Below, piece by piece: positions 1-7,405 of a DNA stretch of 7,405 nucleotides. Each line of letters starts with the position of its first letter. Position 1 is the first letter of the stretch. Position numbers and translations under genes: made by a program. The notes beneath the pieces are model-generated. The model saw only the letters and a list, made by a program, of their open reading frames with translations. It was not told the origin of the DNA and did not search any database. This stretch comes from Candidatus Methylomirabilis limnetica. GTDB lineage: Bacteria; Methylomirabilota; Methylomirabilia; Methylomirabilales; Methylomirabilaceae. The stretch is from contig NZ_NVQC01000014.1 in the NCBI RefSeq assembly GCF_003044035.1, positions 1 through 7,405 on the forward strand. Direction: 5' to 3'.

Positions 1-541
1 AGGCTCGGGTGTGGCCATCGAAGAACATCTCCTGTCGCTCGTACGGATAGGCCCGCACAAAGGGCATGCCCGAATAGCGCGATCGCATACAGAAGAGCTT
101 GACCTGCCGCTCCTCTCCTGCCATGCGGACCCAGGCAGCTCCCCAGTCGACTTCCGCCTCCTGCGCGAGCTCCGGGTCTAAGGGGATGACCGCTGTGACT
201 GTCGGCCATCCCAGCCGAGCCTTCTGCTCCCGCACCCATCGTCTAACTGTCGACTCCGCACCCGGAAAGGCATACTCTTCGACCAGTCGGGTCCAGATCC
301 GGTGCGCCGTGTGGCGATGCTTCTTGGGGGTCTCCTGATCCGTGCGGAGCCAGCCCTCGATGATGGCGGCGACCGAGTCCATCACCCGGGAGGCCGGTTC
401 GTGCCTCCTCCGGTACTTAGGCTCCCAGCCAGCTAGAACCTTGCGGATCGTTTTGCGTGTATGCCCAGTCTCCCGCGCGATCTGACGAATACTCTTCTGA
501 TACACCCGAGCGGCCGTCCTGATGAGCTCGTACTGATCCAT
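1..541 (-). CDS. istA: IS21-family transposase IstA, N-terminal ~180 aa (remainder lies beyond the left edge)
   Basis: Hand translation of the reverse complement from ATG (541..539) has no stop down to position 1. It reads MDQYELIRTAARVYQKSIRQIARETGHTRKTIRKVLAGWEPKYRRRHEPASRVMDSVAAIIEGWLRTDQETPKKHRHTAHRIWTRLVEEYAFPGAESTVRRWVREQKARLGWPTVTAVIPLDPELAQEAEVDWGAAWVRMAGEERQVKLFCMRSRYSGMPFVRAYPYERQEMFFDGHTRA. The N-terminal HTH, the 'HRHTA.RIW..L.EE..F.G..STV.R.V' block and the start of the catalytic core (EVDWG...) match the IS21 IstA pattern as I know it. It is missing from the ORF track only because it is open at the window edge. Confidence 0.85.
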   Translation of the reverse strand, partial: MDQYELIRTAARVYQKSIRQIARETGHTRKTIRKVLAGWEPKYRRRHEPASRVMDSVAAIIEGWLRTDQETPKKHRHTAHRIWTRLVEEYAFPGAESTVRRWVREQKARLGWPTVTAVIPLDPELAQEAEVDWGAAWVRMAGEERQVKLFCMRSRYSGMPFVRAYPYERQEMFFDGHTRA

Positions 542-662: not shown

Positions 663-738
663 ACTCTAGCGAAATCAGAAGGCTGTTACACGTGGCCTCG
701 AAGAGCGCCCCACATTGAAAAAGACAGGCAATGTGTGG

Positions 739-1404
739 ATGAACGAGTTGCCCTTTACTTGGGAGTTGGTGAGCCTCAAACGAGTGTCAGAAATTCAGGG
801 CGGACTAACACTCGGCAAGGTATACGAAGGCCCACTCATCGAGCGGCCATATTTACGAGTTGCCAATGTCCAAGACGGGCACCTCAACCTGCAAGATGTA
901 ACAACCATTGAGGTGCCGGAGGAAGTCGCGCATCGTGTGGAGCTCCGCCCTGGGGACGTTCTGATGACCGAAGGTGGTGATCTTGACAAGCTTGGCAGGG
1001 GAACAGTTTGGAGCGGAGAGATCCCTAACTGCCTGCACCAGAACCACATCTTTGCAATCCGCTGCTTCAAGCATAAGCTGCTGTCGGCCTTTCTTGCCTA
1101 CCTGACTGCATCCCGATTCGGTCGCGATTATTTCGAGGCCACTGGAAAGCGAACAACCAACTTGGCTAGCACCAATTCGACAAAGGTCGGCCTGTTCCCA
1201 ATCCCGCGACCGTCAATTGAGGAGCAACGCGCGATTTGCAAATATCTCGACAATAAGCTCAATGACGTTACTCAGATCGTGAATGGCATTGAAGGCCAAA
1301 TTGCCACCCTCACTGCCTATCGCAAGTCGCTAATTCACGAATGCGTCACCGGCCAGCGGCGGATCGTGGAGGCGGACATCAACCGGGTCAAAACCCATGG
1401 CTAA
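739..1404 (+). CDS. hsdS: Type I restriction-modification specificity subunit HsdS, 5'-truncated: one target-recognition domain plus the C-terminal conserved helix (probable remnant or half-size S)
   Basis: The C-terminal LTAYRKSLIHECVTGQRRI is the conserved distal HsdS helix, and the TRD-like body includes YLRVANVQDG, GDVLMTEGGDLDKLGR and NHIFAIR. The frame is open from 670 upstream of any start codon and encodes RNQKAVTRGLEERPTLKKTGNVWMNELPFTWE. This looks like the central conserved region of a full-length two-TRD HsdS (AVTRGL....K.G..W...P..WE), so the gene is missing TRD1. Possible starts are TTG 715 (ORF track) or ATG 739. The stop TAA at 1402-1404 overlaps the hsdR ATG at 1397. Confidence 0.8.
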   Translation: MNELPFTWELVSLKRVSEIQGGLTLGKVYEGPLIERPYLRVANVQDGHLNLQDVTTIEVPEEVAHRVELRPGDVLMTEGGDLDKLGRGTVWSGEIPNCLHQNHIFAIRCFKHKLLSAFLAYLTASRFGRDYFEATGKRTTNLASTNSTKVGLFPIPRPSIEEQRAICKYLDNKLNDVTQIVNGIEGQIATLTAYRKSLIHECVTGQRRIVEADINRVKTHG

Positions 1405-4318
1405 GAAGAAGAAAGCCCTGGAGCTGACGTTTCAGCAGCACATTGCGGATTACCTCATCCGCGAGCACAAATATGGCGTGCTGGAGCAGTCCGACATCAC
1501 GGACAACGAGCACTTCATCGCGGAAGACCAGCTCTGGGCCTTCCTGAAAGCCAGTCAGGCTGACCAGCTGAAGAAGCTGGTGGACGATTACGGCACGGAC
1601 GCGCGGGAGGAAGTCTTCAAGGCACTGCGCAAGGAACTGGAGTACACGCCGCTATGGATGCTGTTCCGGCAGGGACTCAAAGTGCGCGGGCTGGAGTTCC
1701 GGCTCTTCTATCCCAAGCCGCGCTCCGCCGCGAGCGCCGCCGCTGCCAAGTATGCGGAGAACCGCATCACCTTCCGCCCCCACTTCTACTTCAGCGACGC
1801 GAATCACGAGATTGACTTCGTCTTCTACCTCAACGGCTTGCCCATCGTGGCGCTGGAGCTGAAGCACGAGGCCAACCAGAACGTCGAGCACGCCGTGGCG
1901 CAGTTTGTGGCCCGCGATCACACACATAAGATTTTCCAGCATCCCTTCCTCTATTTGGCTGTGGACACCTCGGAGGTGAAGGCTGCCACCGACCCGCACC
2001 GAGAGGAGAACTTCCGCTGGCACAACATGGGGCTGACCAACACGGCCACGAATGCCGCCGAGTACCCGGTCGAGTTCCTCTATCGCGAGGTGCTGTCGCA
2101 GGGGCAATTGCTGGAGGCGCTGTCGTTCTTCCTCGTCCGCGTGCCCGAGCGTGAAGCCGAGGACGACAAACCGGCGCGTCCGGCCTCCACGATCTTTCCG
2201 CGGTATCACCAAAGCCGACTGGTGCGGCGGGTGGCGGAGGACATCACGGCCCACTTCGCCACGGCGGGCGACATCGGCAAAAAGTATCTGGCCGACCATT
2301 CCGCCGGCAGCGGCAAGACGCTCTCCATCTGCTGGCTGGCCGACCGGTTGCACAGCCTCTTCAGGCCTGACACGAACGAGAAGCTGGTGGACATCACCTT
2401 CATCCTCACCGACCGCAAATCGCTCGACACGAACATCCGCGAGGACATCGACAAGTTCACCCACCTCAAGGATGTGGTGGGCATCGCGAAAAAAGCCGAC
2501 GACCTGCCGCGCTTCCTCAAGGAACGGAAATCGATCATTGTCACCACGCAGCAGAAGTTTGCCTGGGTGCTGGAGGAAATTCAGAAGAACCCGGAATTGA
2601 AGAAGCTGCGGGTGGCGTTCCTGATTGATGAAGCCCACCGCTCGCAGGAAGGCCAGATGGGCGCAGCCATCCGCCTGCCGTTCCGCAAGGAAGGCGAGCC
2701 GGACGAAGAAGCTCCCGATGAAGATCTCGAAGAGCAGATTGCCAAGGTCATCCGCGAGCACGACCTGAATCAGTTGTTCGTCGCCTTCACGGCCACACCG
2801 GCACCGGCCACCGTGTCGATGTTTGGCAAGCCGTTCGACAGCTACACCGAGGCGGAGGCCATCGCCGAGGGCTATATCGTGGACGTGGCGGCGAGCATTA
2901 TTTCCTACAAGACGCTCTATAACCTGCATTGCCCCATCGTCCCGCAGCCGGACGAGGAGAAGCTCTACCCCAAGGGCGTCGTGTCCAAGGCGCTCCAGAA
3001 CGTGGCGTTTCAGGACGACGGGCTGATCCAGTACAAGGCGGAGGTGATGCTGCGCATCTTCGAGAAGGATGTAAAGCCGCTCATCGGTGGACGTGCCAAG
3101 GCGATGATCGTCACCTCGTCCCGCGTGGCCGGGCTGCGGTATTTCAACATCATCAAGGAGAAGCTCAAGGAGCGCGGTGCCGACTACAAGGTGCTCTATG
3201 CGTTCTCTGATTTCGTTCATCCGGAGACGAACGAAGCAATCAGCGAATACGCCGTGAATGAGCTGCAGCCAGCCGAACTGATCGAGAACCGGTTCGAGGG
3301 CGACGACTACCGGATCATGGTCGTCGCGAACAAATTTCAGACCGGCTTCGACCAGCCCTTGCTCGCGGGAATGTTCCTCGACAAGCCGGTGCTGGATCGC
3401 AACGCCGTGCAGACGGTTTCGCGACTGAACCGCTGCTACCATGGCAAGAAGGATGTCGTAGTGGTCGACTTCACCAACAACGCGAAACAAATACTCAAAG
3501 CCTTTGCGAAGTATCGGAAGGGGACGCCGTTCGAGCCAGAGGAACCGGATCAAGAGACCTCCCCAAAGCTGCACACGGAGATTCTCGCTACGGGGGTCTT
3601 CACCCAGAAGGACGCCGCCGACGTGCTCGCGCTGCTCAGGAGCGGGACGGATGCGCAGGTGCAATTCCAGGTGAACGCCTTGCGGATGCGCTTTCAAGCG
3701 AAGCTCACCGGTTGGGAAGACCGCAAGGCGTTCGTCTATCTGCTGGCCCGCTTCGTGAAAAGTTTCCATTTCCTCGCCTGCTTCTTCACTTACTCGCCGC
3801 AGATTCAGGAGTTCGTCACCTTCGCTGAATGGGTCGGCCCGCAGCTCATCAAGGTCGGAACCGTATCCGACCTGATGAAGCAGATTCGCGCCACCGTGGT
3901 CACCAAGGTGGCGGTGCAGTATCAGGGCGTAACGACCAGCGGTGGCCCGGTGAAGCTACAGCCGGGCAAAGGAAAAGGCGGCGCAGGCCCGGTGCCAGTG
4001 AAGTCATCCGTGCAAGACATGATCGCGCAAATTCTCGCCAAACATCAAATCACCGACGAGGAAGCGCTCTACATCAAACAGGTGACGGAGGAGAAGATCG
4101 CCGACCCGGCCATCCGCACCACCGTCCAGGCGCACCGCGACGACCGCATGTATCTCGAAGGACCGTATCGCGGACAGGTCAACGGCGACATTCAGGAGAC
4201 CTACGATGCACGCGCGCGTTACGACGAACTCGCCGACCCGAAATACACCGACACCGGCGGCATCTTCGACATTATGGCCGTGACGGTTATTCAAACCCAT
4301 TTGTCCCTCGCTGCCTGA
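1397..4318 (+). CDS. hsdR: Type I restriction enzyme R subunit (HsdR), 973 aa
   Basis: N-terminal PD-(D/E)xK nuclease motif IDFVFYLNGLPIVALELKHE (D at ~1814, ELK at ~1856-1864). SF2 helicase motifs are present: Q-motif YHQSRLV, motif I HSAGSGKTLS (~2303-2320), motif II LIDEAHRSQ (~2621-2647), motif III FTATP, FQTGFDQPLL, and motif VI QTVSRLNR. The 8-nt overlap with hsdS (ATGGCTAA) suggests translational coupling. Confidence 0.88.
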   Translation: MAKKKKALELTFQQHIADYLIREHKYGVLEQSDITDNEHFIAEDQLWAFLKASQADQLKKLVDDYGTDAREEVFKALRKELEYTPLWMLFRQGLKVRGLEFRLFYPKPRSAASAAAAKYAENRITFRPHFYFSDANHEIDFVFYLNGLPIVALELKHEANQNVEHAVAQFVARDHTHKIFQHPFLYLAVDTSEVKAATDPHREENFRWHNMGLTNTATNAAEYPVEFLYREVLSQGQLLEALSFFLVRVPEREAEDDKPARPASTIFPRYHQSRLVRRVAEDITAHFATAGDIGKKYLADHSAGSGKTLSICWLADRLHSLFRPDTNEKLVDITFILTDRKSLDTNIREDIDKFTHLKDVVGIAKKADDLPRFLKERKSIIVTTQQKFAWVLEEIQKNPELKKLRVAFLIDEAHRSQEGQMGAAIRLPFRKEGEPDEEAPDEDLEEQIAKVIREHDLNQLFVAFTATPAPATVSMFGKPFDSYTEAEAIAEGYIVDVAASIISYKTLYNLHCPIVPQPDEEKLYPKGVVSKALQNVAFQDDGLIQYKAEVMLRIFEKDVKPLIGGRAKAMIVTSSRVAGLRYFNIIKEKLKERGADYKVLYAFSDFVHPETNEAISEYAVNELQPAELIENRFEGDDYRIMVVANKFQTGFDQPLLAGMFLDKPVLDRNAVQTVSRLNRCYHGKKDVVVVDFTNNAKQILKAFAKYRKGTPFEPEEPDQETSPKLHTEILATGVFTQKDAADVLALLRSGTDAQVQFQVNALRMRFQAKLTGWEDRKAFVYLLARFVKSFHFLACFFTYSPQIQEFVTFAEWVGPQLIKVGTVSDLMKQIRATVVTKVAVQYQGVTTSGGPVKLQPGKGKGGAGPVPVKSSVQDMIAQILAKHQITDEEALYIKQVTEEKIADPAIRTTVQAHRDDRMYLEGPYRGQVNGDIQETYDARARYDELADPKYTDTGGIFDIMAVTVIQTHLSLAA

Positions 4319-4322
4319 GGCC

Positions 4323-4985
4323 ATGAGCAAGACGATTCACGACATCCCCGAAGCCGACCGACCGCGCGAGAAGCTCCTGCGCAAAGGTGCGGCTGCACTG
4401 AGCGACCAGGAACTGCTTGCCGTGCTCCTCGGCAAAGGCACACCCGGTATGGACGTCATGACGCTGGCCTCCAAGCTGGCGCGACTCATTGACGAGAAGG
4501 GACTGGCCGTGAAGGCCGAGGATCTCTCGCAGTTTGCGGGCGTCGGTGACGCCAAGGCGACCTTGATCCTCGCGGCCATCGAGTTCGCCCGCCGCCGCAT
4601 CAAACCGGAAGGCGCGAAGATCGTGACCCCTGCCGACTTGCTGCCGCACGTCCGCCATTACGCCGACCGCAAGCAAGAGCATTTCCTATGCGCCAGCATC
4701 AACGGTGCCAACGAGATTCTGAACATCCGCGTGGTGTCCATTGGACTCATAGACCGCAGCCCCGTGCATCCGCGTGAAGTCTTCGCCGATGCCCTCTCCG
4801 ACCGCGCCTCCGCCGTCATCGTCGCCCACAATCACCCGAGCGGGGGGCTCGGACCATCGCCCAGCGACATCGCCATCACCGCACAACTCAAGGCGGCAGG
4901 TGCAGTCGTTGGCATTGAGTTGCTTGATCACATCATCTTCAACAGGACCGGATACTTCAGTTTTCTTGAAGAGGGCAAGCTGTAG
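4323..4985 (+). CDS. radC: RadC-family JAB/JAMM domain protein (UPF0758), 220 aa
   Basis: The N-terminal helix-hairpin-helix region has the typical LSDQELLAVLLGKG signature. The C-terminal JAMM motif is complete: E (HPREVF) ... HNHPSG (from ~4827) ... SPSD. The gene starts 4 nt after the hsdR TGA (4316-4318). Confidence 0.9.
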   Translation: MSKTIHDIPEADRPREKLLRKGAAALSDQELLAVLLGKGTPGMDVMTLASKLARLIDEKGLAVKAEDLSQFAGVGDAKATLILAAIEFARRRIKPEGAKIVTPADLLPHVRHYADRKQEHFLCASINGANEILNIRVVSIGLIDRSPVHPREVFADALSDRASAVIVAHNHPSGGLGPSPSDIAITAQLKAAGAVVGIELLDHIIFNRTGYFSFLEEGKL

Positions 4986-5017
4986 GGCGATCTGATGTCG
5001 CGCATATCAGCAGGGGC

Positions 5018-5072
5018 GCCTAACAACAGCATGCAGCTGACGGCGCTGCGCGCCGCAGCTGATGCTGGGCGT
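5018..5072 (+). repeat. Imperfect inverted repeat / long hairpin forming the 5' exon flank of the intron. It is attC-like once joined to 5815..5819, and could alternatively act as the radC terminator stem.
   Basis: GCCTAAC (5018-5024, fits RYYYAAC) is followed by spacer AAC. The stem is AGCAT(G)CAGCTG(A)CGGCGC (5028-5046), loop TGC, then GCGCCGCAGCTGATGCT (5050-5066). That gives 17 bp with two extrahelical bases, G5033 and A5040. Spacer GGGC follows, then GT (5071-5072). There is no downstream T-tract. Confidence 0.6.
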
Positions 5073-5740
5073 GTGTGCCGGGCATGGCACAGAACTGACG
5101 GGGTGCAAGTCCCCGTGCCAGGTTTAAGCAGAGCCGAAGGCTAGGAGAAGGGCAAGGGCGTCATCGTGAGGTGGGGTCCGAAGGAAGCCCAATCCAAAAG
5201 TGCGGGGCGACGAACAGGAACCGGATAGGGGGTGTGGTACGCTCGGGACGAGCGGGCACGTGACCGCGAAGTCCTCCATCTGCGATTGGGGCGTGCTTTA
5301 TAAATCCGGCGTCTACGCATGGAAAGCTCTGTGTCTTACCCCGGGAGGCCTGCACGGTGTCTACGGGAGTGATAGGGTATGCGCCTAGTGAGTCCTACGA
5401 ACGTGGAAACCCTGAAACAAGGTATGGCGAAACCTAAGTCACCCTGTTTGGACTGAGAGGGGAGCAATCCACTTTGACCGTCGTGCAGGAGTCAGCAGAG
5501 GGCATAGTAGGTACGAGGCAGGCGAGGCTAGTGAGGCACTCCAGAGCCGAAAGGCGGAGAAACAGATAGGCCAAGCCGCAACGTCTTGTACTGAAGGCCC
5601 GAACGGTTGAAAGGGTCAGTAAGCCCTGTGCCCAGTGTGCATAAAGCTGGCGGAAACGTCACTGCTCGAAAGAGCGATGTGCATGGTGGATAGAGGAGTC
5701 CGAACACCCGGTCGGCAGTCTTGCCGAAGTAATCAACCGA

Positions 5741-5774
5741 ACCGCCGTGGTACGTGATCCGTATGCCCGGTGGT
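5741..5774 (+). other. Group II intron domain V (34 nt) with CGC catalytic triad
   Basis: The sequence is ACCGCCGUGGUACGUGAUCCGUAUGCCCGGUGGU. The lower helix ACCGCCG.G pairs with C.CGGUGGU and includes the G.U wobble in the middle of CGC (5743-5745), as in IIC introns. The upper helix is (G)UACG/CGUA(U). The apical loop is not a canonical GNRA and the bulge is 1-2 nt, so the exact pairing needs computation. Confidence 0.75.
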
Positions 5775-5776
5775 GT

Positions 5777-5814
5777 GGGAGGGGGGAGGCCGTGAGGCCC
5801 CTCCCTATCCCGAT
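5777..5814 (+). other. Group II intron domain VI with GUGA tetraloop, bulged branch-point A5807, and 3' splice-site AU
   Basis: GGGAGGGGGGAGGCC (5777-5791), loop GUGA (5792-5795), then GGCCCCUCCCU-A-UCCC (5796-5811). A5807 is unpaired between A5780-U5806 and G5779.U5808. Seven nucleotides (UCCCGAU) follow it to the intron end at 5814, which is the canonical branch-site spacing. Confidence 0.75.
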
Positions 5815-5856
5815 TAGCCGCACTAATCATTTGTAAACACAAGGAAGGCGCCGCCA

Positions 5857-6837
5857 ATGCTTGAAATTAGCAACTGCAACAATATTGATAGCGGGAAAAT
5901 CAGCATTGAGAAGCTGAAGCTGAACATCAAATACGCGATGAACGGAATCGGTAAGAGTACCATTGCGCGTGCCATTGAGCTTCAATTACGAGGCGACGGA
6001 AGCATCAAGGAACTAACGCCTTTTAAGCTGCAGGAATCCGGAGTGGAAGACCAGCAGCCGCAAGTTGCGGGCCTTGATGATGTTAAGAGCGTCAAAGTTT
6101 TTAACGACGACTACATCAACCAATTCGCCTTCAAGCAGGACGAAGTGCTGGCCAATAGCTTTGAGATATTTATCAAAACCGCGGATTACGAAAAGCAGAT
6201 CAATGCAATCGAAGGGATCATCGCAAACATAAAGGAAACGTTCCGAGACTCAGAAGAGATTAACCAGGTCATTTCAGATCTAGCGACTCTCAGCGACAGT
6301 TTTGGAAAATCAAAATCAGGCTACTCTGAAGCAAGCGCTCTAGCGAAAGGAATCGGCAAGGGGAACAAAGTTTCCAACATTCCAGCGGGCCTGGAAAGTT
6401 ATACCGCATATCTGCAGAGCCCACAGAATTCAAAGTGGCTGAAGTGGCTTATGGACGGCAACACCTATTCGAGTCTGTCCGACAATTGCCCATACTGCAC
6501 TTCGCCGACGAAAGACAAGAAGGATGTCATATCGAAAGTGAGCAAGGAATTCGATGCGAAATCGATAGAGCATCTCAATAAAATAATTGCAGTACTCGAC
6601 AGTTTGGGGAAATATTTTTCAAAAGATGCCAATGAAAAGTTGCGCGCACTGACAAACAATATAAAAGGCCTTTCAAAAGAGCAGCTCAGCTACCTCGTCC
6701 GGATAAAGGACCAAGCAGATACGCTGAGATGGAGAATGGTCAACCTGAAGGGCATGACTTATTTCTCCATGAAAGATGCGGGGGAGGTTTCCGATTTCGG
6801 TCCTTCCGGAACGAGTGTGGGTGACCACAACCGGTAG
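5857..6837 (+). CDS. P-loop ATPase N-terminal fragment (AAA_13 / ABC-like, RloC/PrrC-like architecture suspected); native sequence ends ~6778 and the last ~19 codons are read-through into the ISL3 end
   Basis: Walker A in the typical AAA_13 context is LNIKYAMNGIGKSTIARAI (NGIGKST = 5941-5961). It is followed by a long helical, coiled-coil-like region and a CPYC motif (6487-6498) reminiscent of a zinc hook. No Walker B or signature motif appears before the stop, whereas related full-length proteins are, to my knowledge, about twice this size. The RBS AAGGAAGG (5841-5848) precedes the ATG at 5857. The gene is visibly AT-rich compared with its neighbours. Confidence 0.6.
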   Translation: MLEISNCNNIDSGKISIEKLKLNIKYAMNGIGKSTIARAIELQLRGDGSIKELTPFKLQESGVEDQQPQVAGLDDVKSVKVFNDDYINQFAFKQDEVLANSFEIFIKTADYEKQINAIEGIIANIKETFRDSEEINQVISDLATLSDSFGKSKSGYSEASALAKGIGKGNKVSNIPAGLESYTAYLQSPQNSKWLKWLMDGNTYSSLSDNCPYCTSPTKDKKDVISKVSKEFDAKSIEHLNKIIAVLDSLGKYFSKDANEKLRALTNNIKGLSKEQLSYLVRIKDQADTLRWRMVNLKGMTYFSMKDAGEVSDFGPSGTSVGDHNR

Positions 6838-7405
6838 TGGCTGGGTAAGGATGGATATTCGACATCAGGGAGCGATCCGACGAGACTCTTCTAGGGTCGA
6901 AGAGGAGACTGCGGCATGGAAGACAGGCTGTTGTATGCGAAGTTGCTTGGCATCGAGTTCCCGTGGCTGATCAGCAGAGTTCAAGTGGATATGCCGGCGG
7001 AGCGCATCGACGTTTGGGTCGAGGAGGCGTCGGGAGCGCGCTTTGCGTGCGCGGTGTGCCAACAGGACGCGCCGGTGTACGACCACACGCCGGAGCAAGC
7101 ATGGCGACATCTGGATACCTGCCAATGTCGAACCTACGTTCATGCAAGTCTGCCGCGAACCAATTGCCCCAAGGACGGGGTCAAGCAGGTTCGATCTCCG
7201 TGGGCGGAACCGAGGTCGCAGTTCACGCGGTTGTTTGAGATGCGAATGATCGACACGCTCAAGGAATGTGACGTGACGGGTGTGACGCGACTTACGGGAA
7301 CCTCGTGGGACGAGACCTGGGGCGTGATGATGCGTGCGGTCGACCGCGGACTGGCGCGGAAAGACCGGCGCGTGCCGGCGCGCATCGGCATTGACGAGAA
7401 GTCGG
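6780..7405 (+). mobile_element. ISL3-family insertion sequence, left end (boundary approximate, 6775..6790); continues beyond the right edge
   Basis: Composition switches abruptly from AT-rich ATPase coding sequence to GC-rich sequence at ~6778-6785 (…TTCTCCATGAAAGATGCG|GGGGAGGTTTCCGATTTCGG…). An ISL3 transposase gene begins about 135 nt downstream, which is the usual layout for this family. The inverted repeat was not verified. Confidence 0.6.
6916..7405 (+). CDS. ISL3-family transposase, N-terminal ~163 aa (runs off the right edge)
   Basis: Hand translation from ATG 6916 (RBS AGGAG at 6902-6906, in-frame TAG at 6892-6894 upstream) has no stop to 7405. It reads MEDRLLYAKLLGIEFPWLISRVQVDMPAERIDVWVEEASGARFACAVCQQDAPVYDHTPEQAWRHLDTCQCRTYVHASLPRTNCPKDGVKQVRSPWAEPRSQFTRLFEMRMIDTLKECDVTGVTRLTGTSWDETWGVMMRAVDRGLARKDRRVPARIGIDEKS. 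The N-terminal zinc-finger layout (C.VC....YDH....WRHLD......L...PR..CP..GV.QV..PWA...S.FT..FE) and the IGIDE motif are characteristic of ISL3 transposases. Confidence 0.85.
   Translation, partial: MEDRLLYAKLLGIEFPWLISRVQVDMPAERIDVWVEEASGARFACAVCQQDAPVYDHTPEQAWRHLDTCQCRTYVHASLPRTNCPKDGVKQVRSPWAEPRSQFTRLFEMRMIDTLKECDVTGVTRLTGTSWDETWGVMMRAVDRGLARKDRRVPARIGIDEKS

Follow-up and report, generated by a model that had tools for sequence, protein, structure and literature searches.

The locus and its gene content

The window, by which we mean the whole stretch of DNA that was analyzed, is an entire 7405-nt NCBI contig of Candidatus Methylomirabilis limnetica (NC10/Methylomirabilota) with IS elements at both ends, and the same locus was also assembled in two ENA metagenomes. 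It contains the following features.

2-541, minus strand: fragment of an IS transposase
715-1404, plus strand: HsdS C-terminal fragment, starting after the left IS (PADLOC, Pfam)
1397-4318, plus strand: HsdR (PADLOC, Pfam)
4323-4985, plus strand: RadC (PADLOC, Pfam)
5018-5072, plus strand: 5' part of an attC-like site, forming the 5' exon, with IBS1 ...GCGU
5073-5814, plus strand: ORF-less group IIC intron, GUGUGCC...CCCGAU, 742 nt (Rfam, relatives and empty sites)
5815-5819, plus strand: rest of the attC R' core (TAGCC), the first bases of the 3' exon and downstream cassette
5857-6837, plus strand: N-terminal half of a PDC-S06/AAA_13 ATPase (PADLOC, E=4e-116; Pfam AAA_13)
6916-7405, plus strand: 5' part of an ISL3-family transposase gene (Pfam Zn_ribbon_ISL3, HTH_Tnp_ISL3)

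The order along the contig is IS fragment, HsdS, HsdR, RadC, hairpin, intron, PDC-S06/AAA_13 ATPase and ISL3 transposase, and PADLOC and Pfam agree with the neighbours given in a preliminary description of this DNA, i.e., an HsdS fragment, HsdR and RadC on one side of the intron and an AAA_13 ATPase on the other. The Type I R-M system looks incomplete, since HsdS is present only as a fragment after the left IS and HsdM was absent from the 7405 nt of the window by both PADLOC and Pfam. The ATPase is 100% identical to the NCBI protein CLG94_03575 of Candidatus Methylomirabilis limnetica and covers positions 3-313 of the 693 in the profile of PDC-S06, a PADLOC candidate; some of its homologues carry the JGI label “wobble nucleotide-excising tRNase.” Its coding sequence ends just upstream of the transposase gene, which is consistent with a truncation of the PDC-S06 gene by the ISL3 element, and the complete gene (412 aa) is found in L167.

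The intron splits an attC-like site

The 5' exon carries an R'' core (GCCTAAC, 5018-5024) and the GT of an R' core (5071-5072), and between them a palindrome of 18 bp (5027-5067), which is imperfect and has a 5' arm longer by two bases. When 5073-5814 is taken out in silico, the flanks join into a GCCTAAC...GTTAGCC hairpin of 60 nt (dG -36 kcal/mol), in which the R'' and R' cores and the imperfect palindrome are arranged as in an integron attC; we call it attC-like on the basis of these cores and the hairpin, and not of a formal attC model. The intron is on the same strand as RadC and PDC-S06 and is inserted at R' (GCGT/T, where the slash marks the insertion point), with the longer hairpin arm located 5' on the intron strand. 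Further attC-like sites are present at two loci that carry related copies (L155 and L161); no integrase gene was seen.

Two other loci fix the boundaries of the intron. A relative in pOXA436 (L022) interrupts a genuine aadA2 attC at ...GGCGT/TAGATGCAC, i.e., at the same position, and this junction places the 5' splice site at 5072/5073. An intron-less locus (L169) encodes a PDC-S06 homologue of 81% identity, before which it reads ...AATTGT/TAGCCGCACTAAC..., with a different sequence further upstream, and its junction GT/TAGCCGCACTAA confirms the intron boundaries. [quoted passage not shown] Judged by its sequence, the L169 junction is an empty site showing cassette-like behaviour. We infer that an attC split in this way should block integrase recombination at the RadC/PDC-S06 junction at the DNA level, and that the intron is probably co-transcribed with the flanking genes and spliced out.

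A class C ribozyme without a reverse transcriptase

Three Rfam families match the intron: RF02001 at 5160-5334 (124 bits, E=5e-26), RF01998 at 5454-5555 (36 bits) and RF00029 at 5740-5814 (27 bits, under the gathering score of 40). The low RF00029 score is a trait of the lineage and not a sign of decay, since relatives that encode a reverse transcriptase (RT) also fall under the threshold, one (L022) scoring 38 and another (L123) giving no RF00029 match at E<=0.1. Assignment to class C is confirmed through the relatives, domain I being 81% identical to that of the integron IIC intron with ltrA in pOXA436. The termini, GUGUG at 5073-5077 and AU at 5813-5814, fit the group II consensus of 5' GUGYG and 3' AY, and insertion directly 3' of a DNA stem-loop with a short IBS1 is a group IIC trait.

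None of the three intronic ORFs has a Pfam match. A tblastn search of domain IV with five related intron-encoded proteins (IEPs) gave a best E of 0.09, and its three-frame translation likewise held no IEP remnant; this domain of 136 nt contains no ORF with RT or X-domain similarity, i.e., the class C RT/maturase is absent. Rfam, the class IIC relatives and the empty Pfam and tblastn searches for an IEP agree with the earlier reading of this RNA as a class C ribozyme without an IEP. A search of the intron for a promoter or terminator of its own found nothing convincing.

Domain architecture

The consensus fold and the alignments give the following map, in which the limits of domains I and II are approximate.

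5073-5346, plus strand: domain I (RF02001)
5258-5261, plus strand: candidate EBS1, ACGU, in the loop of the hairpin 5252-5267 (putative assignment)
5350-5488, plus strand: domain II (family alignment)
5491-5600, plus strand: J2/3 and domain III, with the conserved block 5491-5509 (RF01998; fold z=-4.76 against shuffles)
5604-5739, plus strand: domain IV without ORF, 136 nt (consensus fold of 16 unique copies)
5741-5774, plus strand: domain V, with a CGC triad, a 2-nt 3' bulge and the 5-nt loop UGAUC (Rfam alignment)
5777-5811, plus strand: domain VI; A5807 is bulged and lies 7 nt from the 3' splice site at 5814 (alifold)

Across all the copies that we compared, the 5' exon always ends in GU, and EBS1-IBS1 pairing of 3-4 bp is possible with each flank. 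Domain II carries an extension of about 77 nt (5372-5448) that is missing from many family members, and its basal stem, CUGCACGG/CCGUCGUGCAG, covaries with the ACGCCG/CGGCGU of other copies. The preliminary description had placed GTCAGCAGAGGGCATAGTA at 5491-5509 and the start of domain V at 5741, and both positions are exact. The gap of about 230 nt that it noted between them also stands (231 nt). About 90 nt of this gap form a distal extension of domain III; the consensus fold puts 5511-5590 in domain III and rules out the whole of 5510-5740 as domain IV. This variable extension (5511-5590), which we class as type A, is closed by CUGAAGGCCC at 5591-5600, and the two distal types, A and B, are interchangeable and occur in ORF-less copies and full-length, RT-encoding relatives alike.

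Domain IV is closed by a basal stem, CGGUUGA (5604-5610) with UCAACCG (5733-5739), found by alifold in 16 unique family members, and encloses the hairpins CG-GAAA-CG (5651-5658), GCUC-GAAA-GAGC (5664-5675) and CGGC-AGUCUU-GCCG (5713-5726); the fold is far better than that of shuffled sequences (z=-3.81). The small GNRA-capped hairpins reported earlier are present and kept in relatives, namely the first two of these and GCC-GAAA-GGC at about 5545-5554. The first 60 nt or so of domain IV align with the untranslated domain IV leader of RT-encoding relatives, and its last 12 nt or so match their stop-codon region, with a former stop-codon UAA at 5730-5732; the rest is not confidently alignable. 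Since the two ends of the domain match the leader and the stop-codon region of the relatives, the ORF has been removed almost exactly.

The catalytic triad of IIC domain V is CGC, as in O. iheyensis, and the bulged A of domain VI typically lies 7-8 nt before the 3' end of the intron, as A5807 does. Domain V of the RT-encoding relatives is identical to that of the window. Among the ORF-less copies one domain V pair is G-C in 10 copies, U-A in 3 and C-G in 3, and in domain VI four pairs change on both sides.

A dispersed family of ORF-less copies

A scan of JGI metagenomes with a pattern internal to domain IV identified 20 contigs, all ORF-less and all with the same architecture, and a Syntrophales MAG (L028) carries the same domain IV/domain V junction as the window at 80% identity. 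Complete copies measure 707-764 nt and are 75-86% identical to the window copy, and an alignment of 16 unique copies from domain IV to the 3' end contains only 1-nt indels within domain IV. Since every copy has the same domain IV breakpoints, these copies most likely go back to one ancestral deletion of the RT/maturase ORF. The alternative of a recent internal deletion, for which a near-identical full-length intron elsewhere would speak, found no such parent: none of the 20 metagenome hits has an ORF, although a pattern inside domain IV could overlook a full-length parent with other bases at these positions of its leader, and an nhmmer profile of domain IV matched only the ORF-less L028 among the 120 GTDB loci listed. 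The ORF-less form is kept in at least 21 other copies, with the same breakpoints and with changes that preserve structure.

A check for compensatory covariation, which had been proposed as evidence of selection on structure, was positive for domains V and VI. Pairing is kept in 98.4% of cells across the ORF-less copies, and 20 cells are changed on both sides as compared to 7.8 in shuffles, with none of 500 shuffles reaching 20; in a control with slid partners at most 4 cells were changed on both sides. Substitutions have no 3-nt codon periodicity (p=0.76). The pairing, the double changes and the lack of periodicity demonstrate selection on structure and not on coding. A stop-free antisense frame runs over domains IV to VI in every family member (95-150 codons; minus strand of the window, 5459-5812), and a hidden protein or antisense ORF was considered and rejected, since the phase of substitutions carries no coding signal; this frame is probably a by-product of the G+C-rich structure.

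All family members lie after a hairpin, at ...GT/T(R)(R) of the R' core and in sense orientation, and their surroundings are diverse, with at least 13 different flanking sequences on the 3' side and 10 on the 5' side. Three copies that are 99.4-99.9% identical to each other (L162, L163 and L166) have different flanks, and many contigs break inside the element, in line with a dispersed repeat. Two pairs of copies (L149/L155 and L162/L163) have a common 3' flank and differ in their 5' flanks, possibly as chimeric short-read assemblies across a 0.7-kb repeat; we did not count flank combinations as separate insertions because assemblies across a repeat of 0.7-2 kb can be chimeric. The neighbours of the other copies are a PemK toxin, MNT and AbiEii-like nucleotidyltransferases, two TIR-domain proteins, YnfA, DUF3089 and NrpR, i.e., typical cassette cargo.

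Even its closest sibling shares just 86% identity with the window copy, and the window insertion may thus be old and now immobile. The window copy has five private changes at near-invariant core columns, the same number as the RT-encoding L123 and fewer than L036 or L051. Two private substitutions lie in single-stranded, otherwise invariant motifs of domain I, U5179C (UCUGAAGGAA to UCCGAAGGAA) and A5230G (AUAUGAGG to AUAGGGGG), where they may affect tertiary contacts. Damage is seen in two other copies, L165 having a 5-nt insertion in domain VI and a duplicated CCCTAT at its 3' end (around 200-250) and L028 running into GC-rich repeats without the 3' strand of domain VI (150-200).

RT-encoding relatives and candidate helpers

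A genome scan with a domain V pattern returned, among the matches listed (at least 120), mostly full-length introns with an IEP, in which the distance from domain III to domain V is 1410-1530 nt; several independent ORF-less or partly deleted copies were also among the matches listed. The full-length relatives have the same first 18 nt as the family members and are 84-88% identical to them in domains I to III and 87-95% in domains V and VI. They are inserted at ...GT/T after attC-like hairpins, and once after a terminator, and introns of this kind are abundant in metagenomes. Their IEPs recur in identical form, on 22 to 36 contigs or index blocks, and this suggests that they are active.

Searches for a helper in the same cells or samples gave the following. 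Candidatus M. oxyfera, the sister species, is listed with an intron of the IIC-attC lineage and its IEP (PMC3001079). A homology search with the L123 IEP produced 8000 hits, none attributable to Candidatus M. limnetica, and in two look-ups with common IEPs the samples did not overlap those with ORF-less copies. The analysis covered 7405 nt of the Candidatus M. limnetica genome, in which a resident helper is thus putative. The domain IV leader of the closest RT-encoding relatives has a CCCUGAGAAGGG hairpin that is missing from the ORF-less family, so that conservation of an IEP binding site is only putative. Plasmids searched in distant mode gave no match to the 3' half of domain IV, the only match being that of the domain III extension to rhizobial introns, and among viral contigs the domain III motif found 18 distant introns and the domain III extension pattern none.

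The same broad IIC lineage contains independent ORF-less derivatives with unrelated domain IV fillings (L020, 3001-3536; L021, 3001-3550; L122; L125/L031; L045), their hosts being Sinorhizobium fredii NGR234 (pNGR234b), a Rhizobium leguminosarum plasmid, a gammaproteobacterial MAG, a Sansalvadorimonas MAG (two copies) and a Thermodesulfobacteriota MAG; loss of the ORF seems to be recurrent in this broad lineage. In one further locus (L083) an IS is inserted into an ORF-less copy. On Bradyrhizobium/Mesorhizobium plasmids (L024, L025 and L026; ~2100-5100) full-length relatives are always located just downstream of, and in the opposite orientation to, a pair of an IS91-family transposase and a tyrosine recombinase, which suggests that the hairpin at the end of the IS91-type element is their preferred target. 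Four loci (L037, L042, L054 and L066) hold isolated fragments of domains V and VI, about 100 nt around the domain V match and preceded by unrelated sequence, and these resemble insertions truncated at the 5' end, of the kind that incomplete reverse transcription would be expected to leave. A relative with an identical 453-aa IEP (L181-L184, and L186-L189) has the same terminator-type 5' flank with two different 3' flanks, each of which is also found behind a different attC-like 5' flank. Leon and Roy reportedly proposed an exchange of flanks for cassette formation; the flank swap could be an exchange of this type if it is real, and equally a chimeric assembly across a 2-kb repeat.

Comparison with known systems

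Classical group IIC-attC introns (S.ma.I2 and relatives) encode an IEP and use the bottom strand, where they insert at R'' (TTGT/T) and run antisense to the cassettes (PMC3001079, PMC7923331). Like them, the window family is a IIC ribozyme that interrupts an attC hairpin at a ...GT/T junction, and its settings are likewise cassette arrays and CALIN-like; but it has no IEP and uses the top strand, at R' (mostly CGT/T), with the orientation of the cassette genes. A single case of top-strand IIC-attC insertion has been reported (PMC3001079, PMC7923331), and PMC7923331 cites an “unusual” top-strand IIC intron in Enterobacter integrons. The ltrA intron of L022, present in the class 1 integron of pOXA436 and on other resistance plasmids of Shewanella, Aeromonas, E. 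coli, Klebsiella and Vibrio, would on our reading be this published E. cloacae top-strand intron. It is like the window intron in its insertion at GT/T of R', its orientation, its 5' end and its domain I (81% identity), but introns of this type encode a 445-aa RT/maturase and their domain IV is essentially just the ORF.

The ORF-less TeI3 introns of Thermosynechococcus elongatus have one deletion origin and are mobilized by IEPs in trans (PMC2882425). Like them, the window family consists of many ORF-less copies with the same breakpoints, from one ancestor, that have spread to new sites; the features seen in TeI3 are present here as the same breakpoints in 16 unique copies and as insertions at many different sites that fit the target rule. 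TeI3 is, however, group IIB/CL and confined to a single genome, with mobilization in trans shown experimentally (PMC2882425), whereas the window family is IIC, targets attC, is present in many metagenomes and would depend on a putative helper.

HYERs are, as described in PMC11754743 and PMC12990946 (Liu et al., Science 2024), ORF-less class IIC ribozymes with hydrolytic endonucleolytic activity. By these descriptions the window intron is similar in class, in the lack of an ORF and in size (742 nt as compared to 637 nt for HYER1), and both have short EBS1/EBS3-type target recognition. Unlike HYERs as so described, the window family inserts like a mobile intron at attC and keeps the branch-site domain.

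Origin and maintenance of the family

We consider the window element to be, with reasonable probability, one copy of a dispersed, non-autonomous family of ORF-less IIC introns that is mobilized in trans. What we observe directly is that the family exists, with common breakpoints, a conserved structure and many attC-type sites, and that its RT-encoding relatives follow the same target rule. The common breakpoints show that one ancestral intron most likely lost its RT/maturase ORF almost exactly, so that its domain IV retained the basal stem together with most of the 5' leader and the region of the stop codon; the ORF-less derivative then spread to many attC-like sites, in sense orientation at GT/T of the R' core. 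From this we infer the mechanism: the RNA appears to keep everything needed for splicing and reverse splicing, and related full-length IIC introns that use the same target would provide the RT/maturase in trans. In the window the intron would split the attC between the HsdR-RadC unit and the PDC-S06 cassette.

The preliminary description left open two alternatives, dependence on an IEP in trans and retention for its own ribozyme function, and the behaviour of the family as a mobile intron at attC, together with RT-encoding relatives that use the same target, favours the former on sequence grounds. Retention would mean a HYER-like ribozyme that hydrolyzes EBS1/EBS3-paired DNA or RNA without protein and serves the host in defence or cassette dynamics. 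To its credit the intron has two sequence-level features of HYERs as these are described in PMC11754743 and PMC12990946, i.e., class IIC and no ORF; conservation and structure of the ORF-less form fit as well; the searches described above found no IEP partner; and some copies adjoin defence-type genes, namely PDC-S06 in the window and TIR-domain proteins in L155 and L153. However, the copies act as a mobile element, at many attC sites that match the rule common to the RT-encoding relatives, and truncated or damaged copies are common (L028, L147, L158 and L165). The bulged A of domain VI and both splice boundaries are conserved and covary, and are needed for splicing and lariat mobility and not for a hydrolytic nuclease; the same applies to the 5' GUGUG and the 3-4 bp EBS1-IBS1 match, which serve splicing and reverse splicing and not a stand-alone hydrolytic nuclease, and this argues against domestication. 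Nor does the idea of a role tied to the defence locus fit what we found: the intron lies at GT/T of an attC-like site, as do all family members and RT-encoding relatives, other copies flank heterogeneous, unrelated cassette genes, and a homologous PDC-S06 cassette exists without the intron (L169). Defence genes are its neighbours because it lives in cassette arrays, and they do not count as evidence that the RNA acts in defence; the available HYER descriptions (PMC11754743, PMC12990946) mention no natural defence role. On this evidence a retained HYER-like function would be quite improbable. A more specific and still less probable form of it is that the family is a natural HYER-type RNA, a protein-free and hydrolytic RNA-guided nuclease that recognizes folded attC-like hairpins ending in CGT/T and is kept in bacteria with cassette arrays. 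If true, its targets for cutting or invasion might be single-stranded DNA that comes in, such as conjugating plasmids, phage or excised cassettes, or it might occupy R' cores and thereby control the recombination of cassettes, and it would be an RNA-only player in integron dynamics or defence.

It is unlikely, although of the alternatives it keeps the best chance, that the intron is immobile and only splices, persisting as a harmless splicer (alone or with host factors) whose contexts arose by vertical descent, cassette shuffling and homologous recombination. According to reviews, a bacterial intron that lacks an IEP usually does no more than splice (PMC4424553), and recombination could produce the two pairs of copies with a shared 3' flank and different 5' flanks (L149/L155 and L162/L163). 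This does not sit well with 13 different 3' and 10 different 5' flanks, with copies of 99.4-99.9% identity in different sites, or with the 5'-truncated fragments, typical of incomplete retromobility, that are common in the wider lineage; in addition, the R' core is split 1 nt from the crossover, so that integrase should not carry the intron between attC sites. That the window copy is a decaying relic, a dead remnant of a full-length intron with no activity left, is the least probable reading. The five private substitutions at near-invariant positions (including U5179C in UCUGAAGGAA, and A5230G), the non-GNRA loop of the hairpin 5713-5726 where most copies have GNRA and the damage to the locus by two IS elements point that way, but the number of private changes is the same as in an RT-encoding relative, all the helices of domains IV to VI are still paired, and the termini, the domain V triad and bulge and the branch A are intact.

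Mobilization in trans of an ORF-less IIC family, the reading that we prefer, would provide a IIC counterpart of the “driver IEP” system of T. elongatus, and it makes a defence role for the window RNA unnecessary. The family is conserved without an ORF in many environmental metagenomes and belongs to the class that gave the HYER genome-editing ribozymes, and it offers a natural series of compact IIC ribozymes (707-764 nt) whose target sites are known. With insertion in sense orientation at the R' core, these introns should be transcribed with the cassettes and the attC is split, and they may in this way lock adjacent cassettes together.
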